A stretch of 64,000 nt of DNA, from sequence record MN176217; one strand, given 5' to 3'. The DNA comes from Escherichia phage vB_Eco4M-7. The position numbers and the translations under genes are program-made. Positions 41,996 through 57,341 of this stretch are shown piece after piece (position 1 is the first letter of the stretch; each line of letters opens with the position of its first letter). The notes under the pieces were generated by a model, which saw only the letters and a list, made by a program, of their open reading frames with translations, was not told the origin of the DNA and searched no databases.

Positions 41996-42619
41996 TTATT
42001 GTCCTGTAACTTCTCTGATCACACGGTCTTCAAGTTCCAGCTTCTTTACCATTTTGCAGGAGTGCTCATAAGCTGGATCAGTAGATTTGATGAACGTTCC
42101 GTTGTACATGACACCTTTGCGGTCCTTGATGTCTTCGTAGGCCGCTTGCGCACAGTCGGATAAGCGAAGGCCATAATCATGAGCTACGCCGGAAAGGTAA
42201 TCGACTGCGGCCATGATGGTGACGTCAATATCCATGGTCTGATTCTTAGCAATAGCATCACCAAGCCGTCCAAGGGTCTTTGCCAGGCGAAGGATGAATG
42301 AATGAGGGTGAGCGCCTTTATCAGCACAACCGCCGCCATTAATGTTTTCGATTTCAGTACCGTTTTGCGCCGCCAGGATGGTCAACACAACAAGACAATC
42401 GCCAATGTCGTCCTTGATTGCAGCTTGCAAGTCACAGATGGCCTGCTCTGTATATCCAATTTCAGGGTCGAAGAACACAAGGTCATGGAGTTGATCAACG
42501 TGGTCGGTTAACTCCCCAAACTCGCTGATAAGCTTCGGGTATTGGTCCTTAAGGTCGCAACCTTGGATGATGTTACGGTCAGAAGCCCACTGGCGAATGT
42601 TTGCATAAATCTGTTTCAT
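41996..42619 (-). CDS. All-alpha NTP pyrophosphohydrolase (MazG / dimeric dUTPase-like) candidate
   Basis: Acidic helical motif ISEFGELTDHVDQ; 207 aa. Confidence 0.35.
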   Translation of the reverse strand: MKQIYANIRQWASDRNIIQGCDLKDQYPKLISEFGELTDHVDQLHDLVFFDPEIGYTEQAICDLQAAIKDDIGDCLVVLTILAAQNGTEIENINGGGCADKGAHPHSFILRLAKTLGRLGDAIAKNQTMDIDVTIMAAVDYLSGVAHDYGLRLSDCAQAAYEDIKDRKGVMYNGTFIKSTDPAYEHSCKMVKKLELEDRVIREVTGQ

Positions 42620-43192: not shown

Positions 43193-44053
43193 TTAAAACT
43201 CTTCTGCGTCGGTCGGAGTTTCATTGACAGGACCAGCGGCACCGCTTGCTTCTTCCTGCTTGCTGCGGTCGATGTTAACGTTACCGCCAACTACGTCGTT
43301 GTGGAATGCCTTGGCGACTTCGTACAGGCCTTTGTCCTGCACCAGACCTTCTAGCTCAAACTTCAGAACAGACCAGGTGTTGCCGTCTTTGGACTGGGAT
43401 GCAGTACCCATGCGAACGATGTTCATAAAGGTCGGCGGCGTTTTCAGACCCTGCGGAGTCTGAACTTTCTTCTGCTGCAGAGCGGTCATCAGCATGCGAG
43501 ACGGCTTGATCATGGAAGAAGTCAGAGACAGCATTGCGCTACCAAATTCACCAGTTTCTTCGTTCAACAGAATTACGAAGTGGTTGCGTGTATCTGCGTA
43601 GTAAGGAGATTTCTTCTCGTGCACCTTGCCGTTTTCGTCCGGCACGAATACCTTACCGTTGATCTCAACAGCGCGGCCTGCCGCGACTTCTGCATCAACG
43701 TGCTCTTTGGTGAATTCACCTTTAAAGCCTTTATCGTCGGACTCGCGACCGCCCCAAAGAATGAAGGTGCGTTTGAATGCGCAAGGGATGATCTGCACGC
43801 CTTTCTTACCGTCATACAACTCACCAGTAACGGTGTTGTAAAGCATGCCAGCTTTTGCACCAGGAACGTGTTTTGGATCATCTTCGTCGACCATAGGAGA
43901 CATCTTCTGCAGGACGACGATAAAAGGAATGGCATACGCATCGGCATCGGCACCTTCAAAACCAGCGCCAAAATCGGTCATGTCGACAAAATCAGCCATA
44001 GCGGACATCTGGGTGTTTTTCACTGCAACTTCGGTAGTTTCTTTCTTAGACAT
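43193..44053 (-). CDS. Single-stranded DNA-binding protein candidate (T7 gp2.5-like)
   Basis: 286 aa with acidic C-terminal tail ending ...TDAEEF, as in SSB interaction tails. Confidence 0.4.
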   Translation of the reverse strand: MSKKETTEVAVKNTQMSAMADFVDMTDFGAGFEGADADAYAIPFIVVLQKMSPMVDEDDPKHVPGAKAGMLYNTVTGELYDGKKGVQIIPCAFKRTFILWGGRESDDKGFKGEFTKEHVDAEVAAGRAVEINGKVFVPDENGKVHEKKSPYYADTRNHFVILLNEETGEFGSAMLSLTSSMIKPSRMLMTALQQKKVQTPQGLKTPPTFMNIVRMGTASQSKDGNTWSVLKFELEGLVQDKGLYEVAKAFHNDVVGGNVNIDRSKQEEASGAAGPVNETPTDAEEF

Positions 44054-44112
44054 TTGATATTTTCCTATAGTATCAAGTTTCGTGGCAACCTGATTTCAAG
44101 ATAAAGGTTAAA

Positions 44113-44670
44113 TTACTTTTTGCTTTTAGGCAAGGTTATTTTAGCTTCTTTGTATTCAAAAACGCTAATATCTTCACTAACTGGGTTGCCCGCTTCCAGC
44201 TGTTCTTTTACAAATGACTTCAGTGTAGCAGAATGAACGCCTTGTTTCAATGTGGCTTCAACACCATCTTCACGCAGCGCGGCAACAATCTCTTGCGCCT
44301 GTTCGATTTCTTCGCGACCGAACTCAGCCGTGACGCTGGACTTGATCAAGCCGCCGTAACCGTTGTTTACAAGCCAATCGAAAACTTTTAATTCGTTTTC
44401 TTTCTTGATTGAAGCGTTCACCTTGGACTCGACCTTGATTTTGGTCTTGTCCTCAAGCTTGATTTCGGACACACCAAGCTCATCCATAACGCCAGGAAGC
44501 AGAACAGTTTTGATTTCACTGATGCGCTGCTTTTGCATATCAGCTTCATCTTCAAGCTCTGTCAAAGCTTCTTGGCGTTCTGCCAGTTCAGATACTAAGC
44601 GCGCAAGGCGCTCTTGAATGCCCTCAGGAGCAACCTGCGGCAAATCATCTTCCCAATTAATATTGCTCAT
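44113..44670 (-). CDS. hypothetical protein with N-terminal coiled coil
   Basis: ORF 185 aa. Confidence 0.4.
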   Translation of the reverse strand: MSNINWEDDLPQVAPEGIQERLARLVSELAERQEALTELEDEADMQKQRISEIKTVLLPGVMDELGVSEIKLEDKTKIKVESKVNASIKKENELKVFDWLVNNGYGGLIKSSVTAEFGREEIEQAQEIVAALREDGVEATLKQGVHSATLKSFVKEQLEAGNPVSEDISVFEYKEAKITLPKSKK

Positions 44671-46947: not shown

Positions 46948-49831
46948 CTGGATACACCTGTTTGATAACGTCGACGATGAACATGTCAATTCCTTCAAGC
47001 TTGCGACCTTTCATCAGGAAGAATGCGCCGTTCCCGACGTTTTCAGCAATGTATTTCCCGTACTTCTGGAACTTCTCTGGACGAATCCTGAAGCGCATTG
47101 GCGAGTCTGTCGAGTCGTCTTTGCACATAAGGTCGATGAACTGAGTCTCAAGCTTGTTCCCGTACTGGTCAAACTCTGCGTAGCGGCCATCAGCTTGAAG
47201 ACCCTTTTTAAGCTTGCCGTGCTTTGTATAGATGCCGCGCTCAAGTCGTTTACGGATGCGTGTTGCTTCGTTCTCGTCCGCAAGCACTTTCTTTGTCAAC
47301 TTGCCGATTACTATTGCACGCTCGTCATCGCCGACTTCCTTCATCTGGCGTATTGAAGCGCCGGACGTCACGCCAATCAGATAAGGGTCATTATATGCCC
47401 ATCCGAACTTTGTGTGCATCTCTGTAAGGTCGCCATATTTTACTTCAGCAGCGGCCAATGCATCCTTCTGTTTTTGCGTTAATGTTCCGGCTTCGCGCGC
47501 TTCGATATACTTCATCGCCTTCACCATGCCGTACCCTTTCGCGTTCATAATGCCGCCGATTAGCTTTCCGTTCGCGATTGTCCAGTTCATTGAAGAGTGA
47601 TCAGGGTCGATTGGAACGTAATCCACGCCTTCCTTCGCAAGTTCACGTAATATCGCAATCGTCTGGTCTTCGTCCTTAGCAGCGCGTAAGCAGGCAGCGG
47701 CAAATTCCAACGGGTAGTGTCGCTTAAGCCACAATGTCCAGTAGGTCACGACCGCGTATGACACGGAGTGCGACTTGTTAAAGCCCCATGACCCGAACGT
47801 GGCCATCGCTTGCCAAAGCTTTCTTGCATCCGCTTCCGGTACGCCGTTATTTATTGCGCCTGCAACGAAGTCTTCGCCAAGCTTGTTAAAGTATTCTTCA
47901 CCCTTACGGCCTGACATTGCCTTACGTACAGCGGATGTTTTCGCCCAGTCAAATGAACCAATCTCTTTGACCACGGCCATGATTTGCTCTTGGTAAAGAA
48001 ACACTCCGTAAGTCTCTTTTAAGTACGGCTCAAGCTGCGGCACGTCGTATTCAATCGGCGCACGCCCTGCCGCGCGTTCAATGTATTTCTGGGCCATACC
48101 GGACGACAACGGTCCAGGTCGACCAAGGGCTGTCAGGTTATCGATTTTGTTGAAGTTGTCAACGTGCACAAAGTTTGTCACTGAGCGTACAGCATCGCCT
48201 TCGAACTGGAAGATGCCTGACATCTTGTTTTCGTTAAGGATGTCAAGGACGCTTTGATCATCAAGCTTGATTCCGTAGAGCGTTTCAGCATCAATAACGC
48301 CTGTATCAGAAATAATGCCGAGAGTACGAAGGCCCAGCGCATCAAGCTTCAAAAGGTTGAGGTATTCGCTGTCAGGCTTATCGATTTGCGCAATCCCTTC
48401 TGCAGTTACAGTACAGTAATCAGAGATTGGGTCATTACAAACAATGATTCCCGCTGCGTGCACCCCTGTGTGGGACGGGTGAATCTCAAGGTCACCCATG
48501 CAACGCGCGGCGTCAGGATATTTCGCCACGAACTCTTGGCCCGTGGTCGTTGTTGCAAAGGTATCCTCCAGGCCGTGACCATAACGGGCGTCACCGGATG
48601 AGTATTCAAGCAGTGCGTTTTTAATGTTGGCCGTTTCGTGGTATCCAATGTTGAACTTCTTACCAACCTGCGCCATTACTGAGTTGGCCTTAAGCGTGTT
48701 GATGTTGCCAAGCTTTGCAACGTTCATTTCGCCGTATTTCTCTTTAAGATAATCAAACACCATATAGCGTTTGGTATCTTCAAAGTCGATGTCGATGTCA
48801 GGAAGGTCGGCGCGGCTTACGTCGATGAATCGGGCAAACAGCAGCTTATACGGGATTGGGTCCACTTCCGTGATGCCGAGGCAATAGCAAACAAGTGAAC
48901 CAGCCGATGAGCCGCGTGCAGGACCGACGAGCATTTTTGTTTTTGCGAATCGTACAAGGTCCGCTACCACCAGAAAGTATGAGTCGAAATCTTTCAGCTG
49001 AATCTGGTGAATTTCTTCGTTGAAGCGGTCCTCATATTCCTGAGTCCATTCTTTGATGTGACCTGCTTTTAGACGGTACTCCATCCCCTCGCGAGCAAGC
49101 TTTACCATGTCACCAGCAAGGTGAATAATCGGTGCCTTACGCAATTTCAAGTCAAGTCCGACTATGCCGTTTGCTATGTCAACAGCATTGGCCGTTGCCT
49201 GATCAAGTTCATCTTCAGTCAAGATGCCTTTAAGCTGTTTGCGCAAGTCTTCCACGCCAACGATGCAATGCGGCTTAACCGTATCGCGAACTTCCCAAGC
49301 ATAAGCGAAGTCAACGTGCTCAGGAGAAGGCATGTGATTGTATCCGGTTAAAACCAGCGGCCTTCCACCGCTACAATGAGCCAATGCCTGGCGCTTTGCC
49401 AAAAGGAACGATGATGGGTTGACGTCTATATAGTCGTAGTCCTCTGGCCGCAGCAGCTCCACGGCACCGCCACAGAATTTAACGACGCCATCAAGCGCAC
49501 CGAACTCTGCACGGGTAAGGCCGCCGCGCTGCGTTGCAAGTGTCGTAGCGTTGTAAAAAGATTTTAAGTCAAGGGCCAATATCCAAGCCTTCGGTTTGAA
49601 TCCCTTTTTCGGGTCCGCATCAGGGTCGATGATTGGAATCTCCATTCCAAACATAGGCTTAATATCATTTTTCTGGCATTCCTTTTCCCAGCGAACGTGA
49701 CCCCATGTGTTGTTATCAACTAATGCCGCGACTTCGCAGCCCAACTCTTTGAGCCGTGCTATAATTTCAGGATGCCGTCCATAAACTTCTTTGAACGTGT
49801 AACCGCTGCGAACTCTCAATTGTGGAAACAT
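46934..49831 (-). CDS. dnaE: DNA polymerase III alpha-type (DnaE-like) replicative polymerase
   Basis: 965 aa; signature NKSHSVSYAVVTYWTLWLKRHYPLEF; N-terminal PHP region looks degenerate. Confidence 0.75.
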   Translation of the reverse strand: MFPQLRVRSGYTFKEVYGRHPEIIARLKELGCEVAALVDNNTWGHVRWEKECQKNDIKPMFGMEIPIIDPDADPKKGFKPKAWILALDLKSFYNATTLATQRGGLTRAEFGALDGVVKFCGGAVELLRPEDYDYIDVNPSSFLLAKRQALAHCSGGRPLVLTGYNHMPSPEHVDFAYAWEVRDTVKPHCIVGVEDLRKQLKGILTEDELDQATANAVDIANGIVGLDLKLRKAPIIHLAGDMVKLAREGMEYRLKAGHIKEWTQEYEDRFNEEIHQIQLKDFDSYFLVVADLVRFAKTKMLVGPARGSSAGSLVCYCLGITEVDPIPYKLLFARFIDVSRADLPDIDIDFEDTKRYMVFDYLKEKYGEMNVAKLGNINTLKANSVMAQVGKKFNIGYHETANIKNALLEYSSGDARYGHGLEDTFATTTTGQEFVAKYPDAARCMGDLEIHPSHTGVHAAGIIVCNDPISDYCTVTAEGIAQIDKPDSEYLNLLKLDALGLRTLGIISDTGVIDAETLYGIKLDDQSVLDILNENKMSGIFQFEGDAVRSVTNFVHVDNFNKIDNLTALGRPGPLSSGMAQKYIERAAGRAPIEYDVPQLEPYLKETYGVFLYQEQIMAVVKEIGSFDWAKTSAVRKAMSGRKGEEYFNKLGEDFVAGAINNGVPEADARKLWQAMATFGSWGFNKSHSVSYAVVTYWTLWLKRHYPLEFAAACLRAAKDEDQTIAILRELAKEGVDYVPIDPDHSSMNWTIANGKLIGGIMNAKGYGMVKAMKYIEAREAGTLTQKQKDALAAAEVKYGDLTEMHTKFGWAYNDPYLIGVTSGASIRQMKEVGDDERAIVIGKLTKKVLADENEATRIRKRLERGIYTKHGKLKKGLQADGRYAEFDQYGNKLETQFIDLMCKDDSTDSPMRFRIRPEKFQKYGKYIAENVGNGAFFLMKGRKLEGIDMFIVDVIKQVYPDGNK

Positions 49832-50373
49832 TATTTACTCCAGATGTCATATACGCCAATTTGTTGGCAGACTTTGTGCAGTAATATTACGTCGTCTAAT
49901 GCACGGTGTTTCTGTTCATATTTTCCGAAATATAATTCATACAGCTCTTGAAGCTTAACTCTTCGGCCAAAAATAGGCAAGGTTTGCTCAACTGTACAAA
50001 TGTTTATTTCTGGAAAATTAACATCATCAAGCGTAAGTCCTTCGCGCTGTAGTGCATAATCAAGAATGTTTTTATCGAACGCATGGTTGTGCGCGATAGT
50101 GGCATCCGTCTTCTTGAAGATTTCTTTTAGCTGCGGGACAAAATTGATGAATGGTGGATTGCACTCAAGGTCTTCATTTGTTAATCCGGTAATCTTTGTG
50201 ATAATTTCTTCAATCACGATTTCAGGATTAATTATGAATTCAAACGTTTCAAGAATCTCTTTGCCGTCTGTCAACAGACCTGCAAATTCAATAGGGCGCG
50301 GCTGCATCCCAAGCGGCGCTTTCGGGTGCACGGTCAATCCGGTTGTTTCGAAGTCATAAGGGAGAAATAACAC
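49831..50373 (-). CDS. DnaQ-like 3'-5' exonuclease (DEDDh family)
   Basis: Exo motifs DFETTG, HNHAFD, HRALDD. Confidence 0.75.
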   Translation of the reverse strand: MLFLPYDFETTGLTVHPKAPLGMQPRPIEFAGLLTDGKEILETFEFIINPEIVIEEIITKITGLTNEDLECNPPFINFVPQLKEIFKKTDATIAHNHAFDKNILDYALQREGLTLDDVNFPEINICTVEQTLPIFGRRVKLQELYELYFGKYEQKHRALDDVILLHKVCQQIGVYDIWSK

Positions 50374-50427
50374 ATTAGCCTCCTACAAAAAGGCCGCCCA
50401 TTAGGACGGCCACAGATTCACGATTCG

Positions 50428-50979
50428 TTATACAGTGTACGGAGTACCGTCTTGATTCAAGCGCACGATAAACTTCAAATCAACGCCGATGATTTCACGC
50501 GTATCAAAGATCACATAGTTGTAACGACGTTGACCAGCAATGTTCGGGTTGGTATGAGAGTCAGTTACAACTTCCTGTGCAACCTGAATGCCTTCTTCGC
50601 TAAAGAACTTACGCCATTCAGCAAGTTCAGCGGCAGTTACGTGCATACCAAGATGGCTAACCTGATTGTCATGCGCATCGATATATTCGATGTTTTCGTT
50701 AATCCAGTTGCAACCCATTGTGTAGTCAAGGATTTCAAGCTCAAGAGGCTTACCAGCGCCCCCATCAGTACCGTTGCCAGCCTGATAGTTGAAGCGCAAG
50801 TCAGCTTCATTGGTGCAATCGTCGCGACGACCTTTAAAGTCATCAGCTTCAAATACGCGACCAGTAGCAACAACATGATCATGGAACCATTCTGTCAGGC
50901 CGATTTTAGCCAAGAAATCCTGTGCGCGCTGAGCATCTGGAATTGACAGGGCGATTTGTTCAATTTTAAAATGTGGCAT
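50428..50979 (-). CDS. VOC / glyoxalase-bleomycin resistance fold protein candidate
   Basis: 183 aa with His/Glu-rich pattern; assignment weak. Confidence 0.3.
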   Translation of the reverse strand: MPHFKIEQIALSIPDAQRAQDFLAKIGLTEWFHDHVVATGRVFEADDFKGRRDDCTNEADLRFNYQAGNGTDGGAGKPLELEILDYTMGCNWINENIEYIDAHDNQVSHLGMHVTAAELAEWRKFFSEEGIQVAQEVVTDSHTNPNIAGQRRYNYVIFDTREIIGVDLKFIVRLNQDGTPYTV

Positions 50980-51075
50980 TTTGTTTCCTTAATTAAATAT
51001 TATTGATTAATTACTGTGTTGTCTTCGTCCTGTTTCTTTTCAGGAGCGGGTGTGACAACTTCAAATGTTCGTGAT

Positions 51076-51759
51076 TTATTTACCAAATGGAATATCAGTA
51101 CCAGACATAAAGCGCCATGCGCCCGTAATTAAGATATGGCGAATGAAGTCAGCAATTACTTGCGGCTCAGTCTCCAATCCATTCATCAATGCCTTTTTCT
51201 GGTATTCAGCGGCGTATTCAGGAGTCCAGCCGCGAGTCGCGCAAACGGCATCTTCAATCTGTTTAGACATGCCAGTGCCGCGCAACTTGTTAGGACTAAT
51301 AGAGAATACCGTGATGCCGTACTTAGGCGTAAGTTCGTGAGCCATCTGCTTGCTGATCATAAGCGCAGCAGCCTTGGATGCATTATAACATAAGCTGGAC
51401 GTCATAGGAATATGCGCAGCGTTGGAAACAATGTTGATCACAAAGCCTTTGTTGTCGATAAGACTTTTCAGCGCAGCCTGAGTCGTGTTAACGAAAGAGA
51501 ATGCGTTGGTGTGCATAACGCGGTTAAACTCTTCATAGTTTACATCTTCAAACCAATTGTTAGAGTTGACACCAGCACAGTTGATCAAGCCTTCAACATC
51601 ATATGGGCTTAAAATTTCTTTCATCTGTTTAGCATCGCGGACGTCATATCCGTATGCTGAATCGATGCCAAGCACGTTATGACCGTAAGCGCCAAGGGTG
51701 TCAAAAATAGATTTACCAAGACCGGAATTGGAACCTGTTACAACAATTACTTTTTTCAT
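51076..51759 (-). CDS. Short-chain dehydrogenase/reductase (SDR)
   Basis: Cofactor motif VTGSNSGLGKS and catalytic YNASK. Confidence 0.65.
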   Translation of the reverse strand: MKKVIVVTGSNSGLGKSIFDTLGAYGHNVLGIDSAYGYDVRDAKQMKEILSPYDVEGLINCAGVNSNNWFEDVNYEEFNRVMHTNAFSFVNTTQAALKSLIDNKGFVINIVSNAAHIPMTSSLCYNASKAAALMISKQMAHELTPKYGITVFSISPNKLRGTGMSKQIEDAVCATRGWTPEYAAEYQKKALMNGLETEPQVIADFIRHILITGAWRFMSGTDIPFGK

Positions 51760-51826
51760 TTATTTATCCTTTTTTTGGACTTCGTTTCGATGAGGTAAAT
51801 ATAACTCATCGAAACGCACAAGTAAA

Positions 51827-52702
51827 CTATTTATTGAAATTAATATTATGGGTGTTGACAAGACGTTCACACATGGCGCTATAAACACCATCGTCGTGTA
51901 TCGAGTCTTCATGCTTCAGGCCGCTGATTGCGAAGCGTGTAAGCTTGACAATCTTAAGCTCGAACAGGTGCCACATGTGGTAGTCTTCCGGTGTCTTCAA
52001 CGTTACGCCATTAGGGAACAACACCTGCATAACCTGACCTACCATCACAGCGTTATCGCCATAAACGGCATTGCGCTCACGGAAGGTCGCTGCCATCGCA
52101 TCAAGAATATCAGCAGCGGTTGCTGGGGCTTGTTGTTCAACTTCAACAAGTTTAGTCTCTTCTTTTCCTGTTGCACTTGGATCAACTGCTAATTGTTGCA
52201 CCACTTCACCTGCCTTGCAAAGATTAAATGTAAAGGCGATTTTATTTTGCGCCATGGAATTATAATGCAAAGCTTCTTCTTGCATCCGCGCGAGTACGTC
52301 TTGTCTATCTTCAAATACGTTGATTATTCGATAATCGCCGTGTCGCAATACATACGATAACCATGCAGATTTCATAACAGTTGATGGACGCTTGTCGCCA
52401 TGTTCTCTCATCTTGATTGTGAATTCATCAAAAGGGAAAACGTTGTCCAGACGTTCAAAAGTGACTTGTCTGTATTTTTCTGGTCTTGCAGTCCAATATT
52501 CAACCGCCTCACCGCGAAGTGATGCCGTCTCTACTGCTGACGCAATGTTAGGATAGAACTGATCATAACCAATGCCGCTGTGGTAATCATCATAGTCGGA
52601 CAACGGGCCTGCCACCCTGATACGGTCTAAGCGCCAACGGTCATCAAACAGAGTTCCGTCAAGGTCGAATACGTTTAAGATTTGGTTATTTTTGATACTC
52701 AT
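51827..52702 (-). CDS. HAD-superfamily phosphatase domain protein with extra C-terminal domain
   Basis: N-terminal DLDGTL motif I; 291 aa. Confidence 0.5.
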   Translation of the reverse strand: MSIKNNQILNVFDLDGTLFDDRWRLDRIRVAGPLSDYDDYHSGIGYDQFYPNIASAVETASLRGEAVEYWTARPEKYRQVTFERLDNVFPFDEFTIKMREHGDKRPSTVMKSAWLSYVLRHGDYRIINVFEDRQDVLARMQEEALHYNSMAQNKIAFTFNLCKAGEVVQQLAVDPSATGKEETKLVEVEQQAPATAADILDAMAATFRERNAVYGDNAVMVGQVMQVLFPNGVTLKTPEDYHMWHLFELKIVKLTRFAISGLKHEDSIHDDGVYSAMCERLVNTHNINFNK

Positions 52703-53502
52703 CCTTTTGATACTCCATCTTTGGCAACTGGATTATTGGTGATTGGCATCGCATCCCAAAACTGGATGCGCAACTCTTCTTGCTGTGCAGTGGTATCCAT
52801 CCAATCACGATACCATGGGCAATGGGCCTTACCGTGACGAGGAAATGCGCACTTACCCATACCGATGCACTGCGGCTGTAGTAAAGGATTGGCCCACGGG
52901 TGCACCTTAAGGACTTCCGCAACCATTGCACGGAATACTTCTTGATACTCGCCTTGAGTACGCGTGCACAAGCGGTTAGAGGCCATTTGTTGTAGAGTGC
53001 GCAAGTTGAACTTTGCCATGATATGCGTTTGCATATTAGAAGGCAACACGGCACGTGCATCTTGAATCTCTGCGCCAGCCGCGCGAAGTTCTTGGTATAG
53101 GGCGTCAATGGTTGCCATTGCATCATCCCATTTCTCTGCCAGTTCAGCAGCCTTCTCGTCATGACGAGTCCATCCCTTTGGATCATCCTCTGGGTAAGTA
53201 AATTTGGCAGGACGAATCGCATCAAACGCTGATGACTCTTGAGCGCGGCTTGTGCGTTCTTGATATGCACCTGTTCGTGTGCGCACCATCTGATGAGTCA
53301 TATTCTTTGATACATCAGTGATGTCAAAGATATAGTCAACAAAGTCGAAAGGTGACTTGATGGTGTCAAGCATGTAGCGCCAGTGCTCTTGCTTCTCTGA
53401 TTCTGTCATCTCAGAGACGGGCTTGCCAGTCATGCGCGTGTTCTTTGTTTCCAGCAAAAGGTCAAGTGCATCTTGGGTGTATCGAATTAATTCAACTTTC
53501 AT
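52699..53502 (-). CDS. thyX: ThyX-like flavin-dependent thymidylate synthase homolog (variant active-site motif)
   Basis: THQMVRTRTGAYQERTSRA aligns with ThyX SHQLVRHR...S signature but has RTR in place of RHR. Confidence 0.5.
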   Translation of the reverse strand: MKVELIRYTQDALDLLLETKNTRMTGKPVSEMTESEKQEHWRYMLDTIKSPFDFVDYIFDITDVSKNMTHQMVRTRTGAYQERTSRAQESSAFDAIRPAKFTYPEDDPKGWTRHDEKAAELAEKWDDAMATIDALYQELRAAGAEIQDARAVLPSNMQTHIMAKFNLRTLQQMASNRLCTRTQGEYQEVFRAMVAEVLKVHPWANPLLQPQCIGMGKCAFPRHGKAHCPWYRDWMDTTAQQEELRIQFWDAMPITNNPVAKDGVSKG

Positions 53503-53515
53503 TTTAATTATCCTA

Positions 53516-53962
53516 TTAACGGTAGTTAACTAGTTGCTGATCACCAGAGAAGGTGCAATGATAAACGAATTGTGCGTTATAAAGCAACTGAAAACTTTTC
53601 TTTGGTTCATTATTAGAACTCATTGATGTAAAGATTTCTGCACCAGAACGGTTTTCACCAATAAGGTTTATAAAGCCGCCAGTTGAACGAGGTTGGACGA
53701 AAGTGAAACGTTGCATCCACGGAGTGCGGTTGGCACCTTTCCCTGTGAATCCCTGAATCTGAATATTCAGACCTTCTTGCTCGTTCACACCGATGTAAGT
53801 GGTAATTGTTGCGCCAGTCGTCGCTGCAGTCTTGCCGTCCATCGCTTCGCAATCGTAAACAGCGATTGAATCGGAAGTACGGACAGCGGCTTCAGTCGCT
53901 TCCATATACATGGTTCCGAGAATAGCAGTTGCGGCAAGCGCGATTCCAGTGATGCGTTTCAT
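53516..53962 (-). CDS. Secreted hypothetical protein
   Basis: N-terminal hydrophobic signal-like segment MKRITGIALAATAILG. Confidence 0.4.
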   Translation of the reverse strand: MKRITGIALAATAILGTMYMEATEAAVRTSDSIAVYDCEAMDGKTAATTGATITTYIGVNEQEGLNIQIQGFTGKGANRTPWMQRFTFVQPRSTGGFINLIGENRSGAEIFTSMSSNNEPKKSFQLLYNAQFVYHCTFSGDQQLVNYR

Positions 53963-54027
53963 TTTCGTTTCCTCTATGAGTTCTGCTTCAATGATTAAAG
54001 TATACGCCCATTGAAGCAGAAAGCAAA

Positions 54028-55023
54028 TTATTTATTAGCAATATAAGCAAATTTTTGATAGTTATTTGCTTTGATGAGTTTTTCAACTTCAGCAAGGTCA
54101 TGGGCGACGTCATCAAGCAAAATGTTTCGCCAAGTAGCGAATCGACCGACACTAAATACGTTCAAATCCATGGTCAGTTGCAGGAGTAGGGCGTGTCGTA
54201 AGTCTTTCGGAATGTCGACAATCTTGCCATACTTCTGGTCGACCTTTTCAACTTCTTCAAGAGCGATGTCACTCCATGAGAGGCCAAAAGCCGTCAACAC
54301 TTCGTCAACTTCTGCACGCAACTTAATGTCACGGTAACGAGTAATGCCGCCAGCGGCTTCAACTGCGGCTTCACTTACGCTAACCAAAGGAATTGTTTCA
54401 ATGATCAGCGTGTCACCAGTGATTGATGCGCGGTAAGTTCTGACGGAGTAGTCAGGAAAGTAAATGGTTTGATACAGTTCACACTTGCGTTTAATCTTAA
54501 AGCGGTAAACACGAATGTTTGCCTTATCGAATGAGAAATCAATCTTTTGATCAATCCCAGCAAGCTTCATCATGACTGGCAGCGGCGATGTGTTGATGAT
54601 TGGCGTCTCGCTATAGCCGCAAAGCGTGTCGACCGGAGTATTAAAGAATATACGGTCACCCAGTTTATCGACAAGCTGATCATAAAAGTCATCAGGCGCA
54701 ATATAACGCGTTGCAGTTTTAAGCTTCATGATTGAACGGCTGCCAAACTGATTGGTGACCTTCATGGAATACATATTGGCAAGGTTGATTGGGCAATGGT
54801 CGTGATAGTAGTTACCGCGAAAATACACAGCCTTGTCAACTGTCACGGCCTTAAAAGGGATTCCGGTAATACGGCTTACTTCTTCGCCGCGAAAGCGTAG
54901 CAGGGCCTTGTGCTGTGGCGCTCGCTCCCCTGCTTCGTACACAATAGAGTTCGGGAAGTGACACGCGGTAATAAGTCCTGCCAAACCGCCGCCGATAATC
55001 ATTACAGGTTGTTTCATGTTCAT
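54028..55023 (-). CDS. FAD/NAD(P)-binding oxidoreductase
   Basis: N-terminal Rossmann dinucleotide motif MIIGGGLAGL. Confidence 0.55.
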   Translation of the reverse strand: MNMKQPVMIIGGGLAGLITACHFPNSIVYEAGERAPQHKALLRFRGEEVSRITGIPFKAVTVDKAVYFRGNYYHDHCPINLANMYSMKVTNQFGSRSIMKLKTATRYIAPDDFYDQLVDKLGDRIFFNTPVDTLCGYSETPIINTSPLPVMMKLAGIDQKIDFSFDKANIRVYRFKIKRKCELYQTIYFPDYSVRTYRASITGDTLIIETIPLVSVSEAAVEAAGGITRYRDIKLRAEVDEVLTAFGLSWSDIALEEVEKVDQKYGKIVDIPKDLRHALLLQLTMDLNVFSVGRFATWRNILLDDVAHDLAEVEKLIKANNYQKFAYIANK

Positions 55024-55100: not shown

Positions 55101-55129
55101 CGAAAAAAGACCCACAACAAGTGTGGGTC
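55101..55129 (-). terminator. Rho-independent terminator on minus strand (GACCCACA-loop-TGTGGGTC then UUUUUU)
   Basis: 8-bp stem and T6 tract on minus strand 30 nt after stop of 55158..56003. Confidence 0.6.
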
Positions 55130-55157: not shown

Positions 55158-56003
55158 TTATTCCGCTTGATCACCGTCTTCAGCATCGTCGTTGGATTCA
55201 ACATCGACAAACTCGATGTGGCCCATCTCTTCCAGCTTGCTCAGGTAGGAGCGAACAGAAGCGCCAAACAGTTGATCTTTAACTTTTTCGCCCAGCTCAT
55301 CGATAGACTGTGCCACACCAACTTCGCCTTCTTTGATCGCCGCCAGAACGCGTCCACGGGTGGAATGCTCTTGCGGCTGGCTCAGGCCATTGCCAGTGTA
55401 GATGAAGTGAGTGGCTTTTGCACGACGCTGACCGTTTGCCTTTTTAGCAGCCTTACGTTCTGCGATGGCTTTGCGACGTTCTTCAGCTTCTTTCTTACGC
55501 TGTTCTTTCTGCTGTTCTGCAGCTTCTTTCGCCGCAATCTTAGCAGCTTCACGCTCTGCCTTGCGTTTCGCTTTAGCTTCTTCTTTGGCCTTCTCTTTTT
55601 CGGCCTTCGCTGCAGCACGGGCTTGATCACGCTCTGCTTTCTTGGCCGCAGCCTGCTCAGCTTTCAGGCGCTTGGCTTCTTCTTTAGCCTTTGCCTTTTC
55701 GATTTCTTTTGCTGCTTTAGCGGCTTCACGCTCTGCTTTCTTGGCAGCAGCCTTTTCTGCACGCTCTTTAGCTTTCTTAGCTGCTTCTTCAGCACGCTTC
55801 TGAGCCTTCTCATCAGCAGCCTGCTTGCGTTTCAGCGCAGCTTCTTCACGCTTGGCTTGTTTTTCCTGCTCACGCTTCTGGCGTTTTTCTTCGGCTTCTT
55901 TCTTTTTAGCCAGGCGTTTTTCTTCAGCCACGCGACGACGTTCTGCTGCGGCTGCTTGTTTTTCTTCTTTAGATAATACTTTGATTGCTTCGGCCATATT
56001 CAC
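55158..56003 (-). CDS. Lys/Ala/Glu-rich charged helical protein with small C-terminal globular domain
   Basis: About 200 aa of KAE-rich repeats then an 80-aa non-repetitive C-terminus. Confidence 0.5.
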   Translation of the reverse strand: MNMAEAIKVLSKEEKQAAAAERRRVAEEKRLAKKKEAEEKRQKREQEKQAKREEAALKRKQAADEKAQKRAEEAAKKAKERAEKAAAKKAEREAAKAAKEIEKAKAKEEAKRLKAEQAAAKKAERDQARAAAKAEKEKAKEEAKAKRKAEREAAKIAAKEAAEQQKEQRKKEAEERRKAIAERKAAKKANGQRRAKATHFIYTGNGLSQPQEHSTRGRVLAAIKEGEVGVAQSIDELGEKVKDQLFGASVRSYLSKLEEMGHIEFVDVESNDDAEDGDQAE

Positions 56004-56156: not shown

Positions 56157-57341
56157 TTAACGCGCTTTCAAATCACGGTACACGGTCAGATTCTTCTTAG
56201 CGCGGGTGATTGCGGTGTACATCATCTTGGAGTACGGGACGCCGCGCAAGATTTCTTCCAGCACGCACACGTTATCCCACTCGCTGCCTTGCGATTTGTG
56301 CACCGTGATTACATAGCCATAGTCCATCCCGCCAACAGCGCGTTGCGCTTCTTTGCGCACTTCCTGATCAGTAGAGAAGGAAAGAGGATTGATCTTCACC
56401 TTTATATCTTTACCATCAGTTAATGAACGCAAGTTGACATACATTATTTCATTCGACTCGTCTTCATCCCTTTCAAAGTCCGGCACTGGTTCATAGCTAA
56501 TAACAATCCCCTGCTCGCCATTACAGAATCCTGGCCCGTGCTGGTTGAAGGTGCAAATAACTTTCTCGCCGATTCCTGGCATTGGCGTTATACGTCCGCT
56601 CACTTGCCGTAATAATGAATTCCATTTATCTTTGGTGCTATTATAGGAGCAAATAATTTGATCATCTTCGCCCATGAATTTCTTCAATGCAGTAACGCGC
56701 GGCGATTCTGCCAATACTTTGACGTCATCGTATTCACGCGGAGGAAGGCGGTTGCCTTGGCGCACGAAGAAGGAGGCGCGGATTATATTGGACTCTTTCC
56801 CTTGCCGCATGATTTCGGTTAACAGCACGTCAACGGCATCTTCAGTAAAGTAGGCGGCGGCTTTTACCGGAGGGACTTGTCCAATGTCGCCTAATGCCAG
56901 GACAGGGATGCGGTGATCAAGAAGGCGCTCTGTGTCCCACTCGCCAACCATCGACGCTTCATCGAGTACAACAAGGTGCGGCCTTTCATCCAGCTTTGAC
57001 TTTCTCGAAAAGATTGGCTCATTGTCGTCATTTACGCCGCGCACGTTATAGATGAACTGGTGAAGGGTCTTAGCGCCACGACAGCCTTTTTGCTTTAATC
57101 GGCTTGCAGCCTTTCCGGTCGGCGCAATATAGATAGCGCCGTACTCACCGACACAGCGGCGCACAATCTCACGAGCAATAGAGGTTTTACCAGTCCCTGC
57201 ATAGCCAGCAATGAAAAACACACGCTTCGTCGTTTTACCGTCCTGCAATCGCTTGTACCATGCAACGGCCTTCTCGATGGCATCGATTTGTTGCGCGTTA
57301 AACTGAATAACTGGCTCATCATTAAATTCTGGAATGTTCAT
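56157..57341 (-). CDS. SF1B DNA helicase (Dda / RecD-like)
   Basis: Walker A GYAGTGKTS and downstream helicase motifs. Confidence 0.7.
   Translation of the reverse strand: MNIPEFNDEPVIQFNAQQIDAIEKAVAWYKRLQDGKTTKRVFFIAGYAGTGKTSIAREIVRRCVGEYGAIYIAPTGKAASRLKQKGCRGAKTLHQFIYNVRGVNDDNEPIFSRKSKLDERPHLVVLDEASMVGEWDTERLLDHRIPVLALGDIGQVPPVKAAAYFTEDAVDVLLTEIMRQGKESNIIRASFFVRQGNRLPPREYDDVKVLAESPRVTALKKFMGEDDQIICSYNSTKDKWNSLLRQVSGRITPMPGIGEKVICTFNQHGPGFCNGEQGIVISYEPVPDFERDEDESNEIMYVNLRSLTDGKDIKVKINPLSFSTDQEVRKEAQRAVGGMDYGYVITVHKSQGSEWDNVCVLEEILRGVPYSKMMYTAITRAKKNLTVYRDLKAR

Follow-up and report, generated by a model that had tools for sequence, protein, structure and literature searches.

A Conserved Operon with a Variant ThyX and a UGM-Like Flavoprotein as a Candidate Thymidine-Modification Module in Escherichia Phage vB_Eco4M-7

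Escherichia phage vB_Eco4M-7 is a Wifcevirus, and a stretch of 64,000 nucleotides of its genome (MN176217; hereafter the window) carries, at 50428-55023, six tightly packed open reading frames (ORFs) on the minus strand, encoding a flavoprotein, a secreted protein, a ThyX-like protein, a HAD-fusion protein, an SDR and a VOC-like protein. We found that these six genes form one transcription unit between two strong intrinsic terminators, and that the genes for the flavoprotein, the ThyX-like protein and the HAD-fusion protein are an invariant co-linear triad across very different phages. We favor, as an evenly balanced proposition, the hypothesis that the operon is a nucleotide-modification module of the PB1-like lineage, forming the core of a pathway for a sugar-derived C5 side chain on thymine/uracil that protects TG sites. 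DNA base modification had been one candidate function in a preliminary description of the cluster; the co-occurrence of the genes, the residue changes in the ThyX-like protein, the phenotypes of Pbunavirus and Wifcevirus and the sparing of palindromes containing TG/CA speak for it, all of them circumstantially.

Conservation and Synteny of the Operon

Escherichia phage vB_Eco4M-7n matches the window with 100% identity, and phages WFC, WFH, ECML-117, FEC19, Mansfield and Bas98-101 match it with 93-99%. When viral contigs were scanned with one flavoprotein sequence, only near-identical phages were retrieved, and an alignment-based scan gave a wider set; 80 further IMG/VR loci were fetched, and the cluster genes were mapped in them with phmmer. 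For the flavoprotein we counted 1913 homologs. Among deposited phage genomes, 361 carry it; these include all Pbunavirus (about 39% identity), relatives in Serratia, Pantoea, Xanthomonas, Burkholderia and Luteibacter, a Cronobacter podophage of 42 kb and Rhizobium phages of 206 kb. The numbers of flavoprotein and ThyX-like genes were equal within each genus (Pseudomonas 292, Escherichia 26, Serratia 9). In all 65 non-identical loci, the ThyX-like gene follows the flavoprotein gene with a median gap of 358 bp, the two overlapping in some, and both the ThyX-like gene and the HAD C-terminal domain were present in every one of the 48 non-identical loci that reach DnaQ/PolIII. The gene order is always flavoprotein, ThyX-like, HAD N- and C-terminal domains, SDR and VOC where present, DnaQ and PolIII alpha, and the triad stays together in a podophage of 42 kb and in the Rhizobium phages, the latter having no polymerase nearby. 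The SDR and VOC genes are gained and lost as a pair, since among the 48 polymerase-reaching loci both were found in 32, neither in 14 (including Pbunavirus) and only one in 2. Comparison of gene neighborhoods in related phages, proposed earlier as a check, therefore showed strongly conserved co-occurrence. The five enzymes of the cluster as first described are indeed present, but they are of unequal standing, comprising a universal triad and an optional SDR and VOC pair that is absent from Pbunavirus.

Some lineages carry further genes within the cluster. A T4 endonuclease V-like pyrimidine-dimer glycosylase (Pyr_excise, 9.5e-13) lies between the ThyX-like and HAD genes in a podophage-like locus (L045:10913-11344) and six other IMG/VR loci, an insertion that may be incidental. 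Extras in other lineages are a HAD_PNKP gene, a DUF4406 protein or a small MazG-like protein. A 269-aa ORF in the cluster of locus L037 was considered as a GT-A glycosyltransferase, on account of a DxD-like motif (FVDDDFEF) seen by eye, and was rejected for want of Pfam, PHROG or PDB support.

The ThyX-Like Protein

The ThyX-like protein contains a Thy1 domain (PF02511; 1.2e-30, 107.1 bits against a cut-off of 24.8, residues 5-203). With TIGR02170, the NCBIfam thyX equivalog, it scored 83.1 bits, under the cut-off of 87.9, and its matches to solved ThyX structures reached E of about 1e-4 at best. We surveyed 70 non-identical ThyX-like orthologs from flavoprotein-bearing loci, aligned to T. maritima ThyX. 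His53, which we take to be the residue that stacks on folate in the T. maritima enzyme, is replaced by Ile in all 70 sequences, as are His59 by Phe, His178 by Arg, and His79, the H of the RHR motif, by Thr, Ser or Asn (RTR in vB_Eco4M-7). Tyr91 is changed to Val or Ala in 68 of the 70 (Ala in vB_Eco4M-7), and the position of Ser88 is occupied by Thr in 52, Ser in 15 and Ala in 3 (Thr in vB_Eco4M-7). The protein does not conform to the RHRxxSxxxxSxR signature, the corresponding sequence being RTRTGAYQERTSR; the first Ser of the signature is Ala here, and is Ser in 41 and Ala in 29 members of the subfamily. On the other hand, the dUMP/FAD-binding residues Arg78, Arg80, Arg90, Arg147, Arg165, Arg174 and Gln75 are invariant in all 70.

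Strict conservation of Tyr91 and Ser88 has been described for ThyX, in which both are critical and orient the one-carbon adduct on flavin N5; free formaldehyde can be used by ThyX via a flavin carbinolamine, and apo-ThyX accepts pre-formed N5-alkylated FAD (Bou-Nader et al., PMC8316439). The pattern of replacements suggests that the ThyX-like protein has kept nucleotide and FAD binding and that its carbon-donor side has been rebuilt, as would be expected for a dUMP enzyme that installs a different group. Canonical ThyX enzymes (T. maritima TM0449, PBCV-1 A674R) share with it the Thy1 fold and the dUMP/FAD-binding Arg and Gln residues, but it departs from them in the RTR motif, in the equivalents of His53, His59, His178, Tyr91 and, mostly, Ser88, in its score under the equivalog cut-off, and in an extra Cys-bearing C-terminal extension. 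Its designation as a variant ThyX in the preliminary description is borne out by this score and by catalytic residues altered throughout the subfamily.

The extension comprises the C-terminal approximately 60 residues of the PB1-like members (52699-52900 of the window, minus strand), with three conserved cysteines in the pattern C-x5-C-AFPR-[HWY]-G ... C-P-x-[YF]-R plus a variable insertion. In the podophage-like and Rhizobium-phage members, a helical tail lacking Cys takes its place. The extension may serve to bind a metal or a partner.

The Flavoprotein

The flavoprotein is FAD-binding, appears to have the fold of UGM, protoporphyrinogen oxidase and amine oxidase, and belongs to a distinct phage family (phrog_4828). 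The fold was placed by structure comparison only, in which the protein was roughly equidistant from UGM and protoporphyrinogen oxidase. It has in common with UGM (Glf) and protoporphyrinogen oxidase a GxGxxG motif, the C-terminal FAD motif GR(F/L)xT(W/Y)R and, apparently, the two-domain FAD fold, but differs in being shorter, in giving no profile match to either family, and apparently in having Asn at the position of UGM Tyr349. No Pfam or NCBIfam match was obtained, and PDB sequence searches with the single sequence or a 37-sequence profile gave nothing useful, the profile retrieving no UGM. When the family was compared with K. pneumoniae UGM using hhalign, only 33 columns around the C-terminal FAD motif were aligned, with a probability of 35%; within this stretch, Tyr349 of UGM pairs with the near-invariant Asn300 of the flavoprotein, and UGM Arg174 and Arg280 fall outside it. 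The annotators of phage Mansfield recorded an HHpred probability of 100% to 1I8T, which was not reproduced in our analysis.

The HAD-Fusion Protein

The N-terminal domain of the HAD-fusion protein has the DxDxT nucleophile and the Thr/Lys/Asp motifs II-IV of a capless HAD phosphatase, and is closest to the phosphatase of T4 Pnkp. We found no P-loop 5'-kinase domain of the kind present in T4 Pnkp; the second domain is a four-helix bundle. The HAD phosphatase of the earlier description was thus recovered, and the description is extended by this conserved C-terminal domain, which has 22 invariant residues, including R210, Y214, H245, E248, K253, R256, H264, D266 and D270. Its family comprises 1602 representative clusters (793 at E<=1e-10), which are 55-70% identical and many of which are stand-alone proteins of 100-200 aa; in 17 of 67 loci, the N- and C-terminal domains are encoded by separate genes.

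A domain-fusion search over the 1602 homolog clusters gave weak matches to DUF6378 in relatives of the four-helix domain, and its PHROG names are inconsistent (polynucleotide kinase, phosphofructokinase). Two identities were tried with hhalign and rejected, each at a probability of less than 2%: a MazG-like domain, by comparison with the MazG-like protein of the window, and T7 gp1.7/DUF3310, by comparison with the C-terminus of an Ss1 protein and with T7 gp1.7. This protein, orf32 of Cronobacter phage Ss1 (L010:7561-8241), has the HAD domain fused to a DUF3310/T7 gp1.7-like nucleotide-kinase domain in place of the four-helix domain, suggesting that the position of HAD partner is held by a nucleotide-handling function.

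The SDR, VOC-Like and Secreted Proteins

The SDR is a classical member of its family (adh_short, 2.6e-31), in which TGxxxGxG (8-15), NCAG (60-63) and the tetrad N85/S112/Y125/K129 can be read from the sequence. It reached no NCBIfam cut-off, and its nearest PDB entries were FabG and glucose and acetoin dehydrogenases (E of about 1e-12).

The VOC-like protein matched Glyoxalase_4 with E = 0.004 and 17.8 bits, below the cut-off of 27, and neither the protein nor its family profile gave a PDB sequence match. The family has 690 homologs, 53-95% identical and all on phage-type contigs, two of which carry a precomputed PF13669 assignment. The residues Q8, E80, E82, H109, H113 and D167 are invariant and would fit a VOC-type metal site, for which Q8, E82, H109 and D167 could be the ligands.

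The secreted protein has an N-terminal signal peptide and no family match in domain searches, and its homologs were found only in the Wifcevirus loci (L018-L020). The signal-peptide protein of the preliminary description is therefore present, but as a lineage-specific insert rather than a shared member of the cluster, and it probably stands outside the pathway. The same slot between the flavoprotein and ThyX-like genes holds two unrelated signal-peptide ORFs in Pantoea phage Kyle (L017:7966-8893) and five tiny ORFs in Pbunavirus, against the one secreted ORF of Wifcevirus, and looks like a hotspot for moron-like inserts.

Avoidance of Restriction Sites

The window contains 17 EcoRI, 6 EcoRV and 7 EcoKI sites, indicating that the restriction resistance of these phages does not result from loss of sites. 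We then scored a hexamer palindrome as purged when it was absent from the window or occurred once. None of the 16 palindromes containing TG/CA was purged, in comparison with 19 of the 48 lacking it (Fisher p=0.0015), of which 15 were absent and 4 occurred once. Among palindromes with a GC content of at least 4, the corresponding figures were 0 of 8 and 17 of 24 (p=0.0006). The purged sites include GGATCC, GGTACC, GAGCTC, CGATCG, CTCGAG and TCTAGA. CTAG occurred 28 times against 130 expected, GATC 109 times against 257 expected, and the non-palindromic BsaI site GGTCTC was absent against about 26 expected; AAGCTT (54) and GTCGAC (27) were over-represented.

The same palindrome test on phage Bas100 gave the same result. 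The unmodified virulent phages T7 and N4, used as controls, purge palindromes with TG/CA too (T7, 6 of 16 and 22 of 48 others; N4, 7 of 16 and 13 of 34 others), and the sparing in Wifcevirus was significant against the two pooled (p=0.002). We also pooled 775 kb from 57 loci that are non-redundant and carry the module; there, TG/CA was missing from all twelve of the palindromes with the strongest depletion, both in the PB1-like group and in the other lineages. PB1 alone showed the same trend, which was not significant (1 of 16 and 10 of 41). These data suggest that TG sites are exempt from restriction selection in the vB_Eco4M-7 genome, as expected if the T of TG is modified, as it is in Pbunavirus. 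EcoP1_I is the only system that is effective, and its site AGACC lacks TG/CA, in agreement with TG protection. Protection in a TT context was also considered and rejected, as unmodified T7 likewise spares TT-containing, AT-rich palindromes.

Published Phenotypes and Known Modification Systems

The Pbunavirus phages F8 and 14-1 contain thymidine derivatives of 362 Da (F8) and 390 Da (14-1), as determined by liquid chromatography-mass spectrometry, which are located at TG, replace about a quarter of T, and were read as a tetrose sugar-alcohol derivative and a cyclic aldopentose derivative (PMC12191111). These phages are without the genes usually used to predict hypermodification, the study names no biosynthetic genes, and the anti-END gene of Pbunavirus, gp88, lies elsewhere in the genome (PMC12191111). 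The Wifceviruses, for which O-antigen is the receptor, show restriction resistance with no known mechanism (PMC11990801). According to the two source papers, known genes for protection or hypermodification are absent (PMC11990801, PMC12191111). The Wifcevirus papers contain no restriction-digest data. In the searchable literature, we found no link between ThyX and hypermodification, nor between genes of this operon and modification.

The vB_Eco4M-7 operon shares with the sister genus Pbunavirus an orthologous flavoprotein (39% identity), ThyX-like protein (49%) and HAD-fusion protein in the same order, and a TG/CA signal that appears here as palindrome sparing; Pbunavirus is without the SDR, VOC-like and secreted proteins. 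Wifcevirus differs in also resisting EcoRI and EcoRV, whose sites contain no TG, and the structure or context of its modification may therefore differ. The Pbunavirus-specific PB1 ORF69-71 have no homolog in the window, which leaves few candidate genes common to the two groups. Of these three, ORF70, beside the primase, is hypervariable in Pbunavirus (14-1 is 57% identical to F8 and 34% to PB1, with neighboring genes at 90-99%; 14-1 L012:3928-5232, PB1 L009:1176-2228, F8 copy in L098), and is a candidate for the determinant of the differing F8 and 14-1 adducts or for an anti-defense gene.

Thymidine hypermodification in phages M6, ViI, SP10 and PaMx11 (Lee et al. 2018; PMC8989533) resembles the present proposal in that a bulky group on thymine C5 replaces part of T and blocks restriction, and in that the pathway starts with an enzyme of the thymidylate synthase superfamily. 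Those phages, however, employ a ThyA-family dUMP hydroxymethylase, the kinase 5-HMUDK, and pyridoxal phosphate-dependent, radical-SAM or aGPT-Pplase enzymes acting on DNA, none of which is annotated here, whereas the candidate starter in vB_Eco4M-7 is a ThyX-family flavoenzyme together with a UGM-fold flavoprotein. Neither a ThyA-family dUMP hydroxymethylase nor 5-HMUDK is annotated in the near-identical Bas100, a statement about annotation, no dedicated profile search having been run. A precedent is given by the glycosylated 5-hydroxycytosine pathways of RB69, DLP3 and RL38JI, in which a flavin-repurposed thymidylate synthase homolog places a non-methyl substituent on C5 at the mononucleotide level and sugar-nucleotide enzymes feed DNA glycosylation (PMC13326640). 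There, 5-hydroxy-dCMP is the product of ThyA-family homologs that have adopted flavin as cofactor, and the DNA-glycosylation genes of Rhizobium phage RL38JI include one for a true UGM (PMC13326640).

Proposed Pathway and Alternative Explanations

In the modification pathway that we favor, the ThyX-like enzyme would place a non-methyl group, either hydroxymethyl or a larger sugar-derived group, on C5 of dUMP, as suggested by the retention of the dUMP/FAD arginines and the loss of the histidines and of the Tyr91/Ser88 pair that serve the folate and the one-carbon adduct. The UGM-like flavoprotein would supply or activate the sugar, as a furanose nucleotide-sugar or a flavin-N5 sugar adduct, and the PNKP-type phosphatase would remove phosphate from a phosphosugar or nucleotide intermediate; the capless HAD fold suggests that its substrate may be carried on DNA. 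The sugar would be tailored, in Wifcevirus and in many of its relatives, by the SDR (ketoreduction) and the VOC-like protein (epimerization or isomerization), in which case the Wifcevirus adduct should differ from those of Pbunavirus.

A bolder version, which we consider rather improbable, is that the ThyX-like protein and the UGM-fold flavoprotein jointly modify dUMP by a "reductive glycitylation". Flavin N5 would first capture a nucleotide-sugar or a sugar aldehyde, in the way that UGM captures galactose and ThyX formaldehyde; C5 of dUMP would attack C1 of the sugar, and elimination of the flavin and return of a hydride would yield a 5-(1-deoxyalditol-1-yl)-dU, a C-C linked polyhydroxyalkyl derivative. 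The change of Tyr91 to Ala/Val would make room for the side chain, and that of His53 to Ile would remove the folate stacking site. The calculated nucleoside mass is 362.3 Da with a pentose donor, equal to that of F8, and 390.3 Da with a hexodialdose donor, equal to that of 14-1; O-linked ethers of 5-hydroxymethyldeoxyuridine are isobaric with these C-C products, so that mass alone is indecisive.

If true, a pathway built from a ThyX-family enzyme together with a flavoprotein of the UGM fold would be new chemistry for phage thymidine hypermodification, itself a known phenomenon, and reductive glycitylation would be a new reaction class among thymidylate synthases, giving a new kind of DNA base. 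The operon provides a short list of candidate genes for the sugar-type thymidine of Pbunavirus, whose phages are those used most in therapy against Pseudomonas, and for the restriction immunity of Wifcevirus. Its genes would then be markers for predicting genome modification, applicable to over 360 sequenced phages and to metagenomic contigs in the thousands, with relevance to enzymatic DNA labelling and to host range in phage therapy, as END nucleases target such DNA. Since vB_Eco4M-7 can be rebuilt from PCR fragments (PMC11074155), the link between gene and modification is directly testable.

Several points weigh against a modification module. The specificity for TG and the replacement of about 25% of T imply a sequence-reading step at the DNA level, and the nucleotide-level scheme leaves TG unexplained; free dUMP is the substrate of ThyX enzymes, and in the operon we found no domain of the DNA methyltransferase-like, base-flipping or glycosyltransferase kind. 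A TG-only model is also incomplete, as EcoRI and EcoRV sites lack TG and are nevertheless resisted in vivo. Pbunavirus DNA is modified without the SDR and VOC-like proteins, which are therefore not needed for the basic chemistry. Finally, except in the Rhizobium phages, the module always accompanies DnaQ-PolIII alpha, so that its synteny could reflect inheritance of a replication cassette and not a shared function.

The last point leads to the main rival, to which we assign a clearly lower but still appreciable probability: an ordinary replication-support cassette, with modification, if any, encoded elsewhere. The ThyX-like protein would be a working thymidylate synthase whose substitutions are specific to the lineage, the HAD-fusion protein an end-healing 3'-phosphatase working with the phage ligase, the flavoprotein a redox partner of ThyX (for example, an FAD/NAD(P)H oxidoreductase returning it to the reduced state) or unrelated, and the SDR and VOC-like proteins products of auxiliary metabolic genes. 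The clear Thy1 domain with its invariant dUMP/FAD-binding arginines, the nearness of the HAD domain to the T4 Pnkp phosphatase, the linkage to DnaQ-PolIII alpha in 48 of 48 loci and the database labels of thymidylate synthase and polynucleotide kinase all fit a cassette of this kind, as does the normal rebooting of unmodified genomes made by PCR (PMC11074155). However, critical ThyX residues are replaced in every member (Tyr91 and three histidines, with Ser88 in part), the protein scores under the thyX equivalog cut-off, and the flavoprotein is never parted from this ThyX-like gene. We know of no role for a flavoprotein of the UGM/protoporphyrinogen oxidase fold in dTMP synthesis. Moreover, the Rhizobium phages keep the triad without the polymerase, and few other enzyme genes common to Wifcevirus and Pbunavirus could explain the TG-linked signal.

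The preliminary description had also proposed a folate/flavin recycling loop supporting ThyX. In such a loop, the SDR would be a FolM/PTR1-like pteridine reductase and the flavoprotein a flavin reductase. SDR-family pteridine reductases exist, ThyX needs reduced FAD, and the genes are co-transcribed, but we found this idea poorly supported and regard it as very unlikely. The SDR is nearest FabG and glucose and acetoin dehydrogenases and not pteridine reductases, both it and the VOC-like protein are dispensable, being missing from 14 of 48 lineages including Pbunavirus, the folate-stacking His53 equivalent is Ile in all 70 orthologs, and ThyX releases tetrahydrofolate, not dihydrofolate, so that no reductase is needed. 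Remodeling of host glycans (sugars of the O-antigen or the envelope) by a mutase-like flavoprotein, a reductase, an isomerase and the secreted protein, so as to exclude superinfecting phages or mask the receptor, seems to us more improbable still. It would draw on the role of UGM in making galactofuranose for O-antigens, the binding of Wifceviruses to O-antigen and the signal-peptide protein within the operon. Against it, the operon encodes neither a glycosyltransferase nor a flippase nor a membrane protein, only Wifcevirus has the secreted protein, and the triad is kept beside replisome genes in phages of Pseudomonas, Xanthomonas, Rhizobium and other hosts despite their unrelated surface glycans.

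Organization of the Operon and Its Neighborhood

The features of the operon and its surroundings are listed in Table 1. All six ORFs were recovered where the preliminary description had placed them, and the limits that it gave for the cluster coincide with the transcription unit bracketed by the two terminators. Both terminators are annotated at the same places in phage Mansfield. Within the operon, the stop codon of the ThyX-like gene and the start of the HAD-fusion gene overlap by 4 nt.

Table 1. Positions of the operon genes, terminators and neighboring genes in the window.
Feature	Position	Strand	Description
MazG-like pyrophosphatase	41996-42619	-	with extra C-terminal domain (phrog_1992)
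Two conserved genes	43193-44670	-	Pfam matches Pam3_Gp34 (4e-86) and DUF7307/Pam3 gp33-like (3e-37)
DnaQ	49831-50373		cluster flank
Intrinsic terminator closing the operon	50392-50411	-	before DnaQ; GGCCGTCC-TAAT-GGGCGGCC, then TTTTT; 7 of 8 pairs G-C
VOC-like protein	50428-50979	-	183 aa
SDR	51076-51759	-	227 aa
HAD-fusion protein	51827-52702	-	291 aa
HAD C-terminal four-helix domain	51830-52129	-	helices 196-214, 217-228, 238-259, 265-281
HAD N-terminal domain	52178-52702	-	capless HAD phosphatase, polynucleotide-kinase-phosphatase type
ThyX-like protein	52699-53502	-	267 aa
Secreted protein	53516-53962	-	148 aa
Flavoprotein	54028-55023	-	331 aa
Intrinsic terminator upstream of the operon	55109-55129	-	8-bp stem GACCCACA/TGTGGGTC, then TTTTTT; ends the Lys/Ala/Glu-rich gene
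Lys/Ala/Glu-rich protein	55158-56003	-	281 aa; phrog_4765
Dda-like helicase	56157-57341		cluster flank

The DnaQ and Dda-like helicase genes flank the cluster as had been described, with the gene for the Lys/Ala/Glu-rich protein additionally separating it from the helicase gene. The N-terminal half of this protein is a long low-complexity Lys/Ala/Glu region and its C-terminal domain is small and globular; the gene is called "TolA" in some records, and the product may be a histone-H1-like DNA-binding protein. All PB1-like myoviruses have this gene immediately upstream of the operon, and the podophage-like lineages are without it.

Farther away, the gene of the MazG-like pyrophosphatase adjoins that of an ATP-dependent DNA ligase, and its product could adjust the pool of dNTPs for a modification pathway. 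The two conserved genes matching Pam3 proteins, a pair shared with a cyanophage, are located between the spanins and the replicative helicase.

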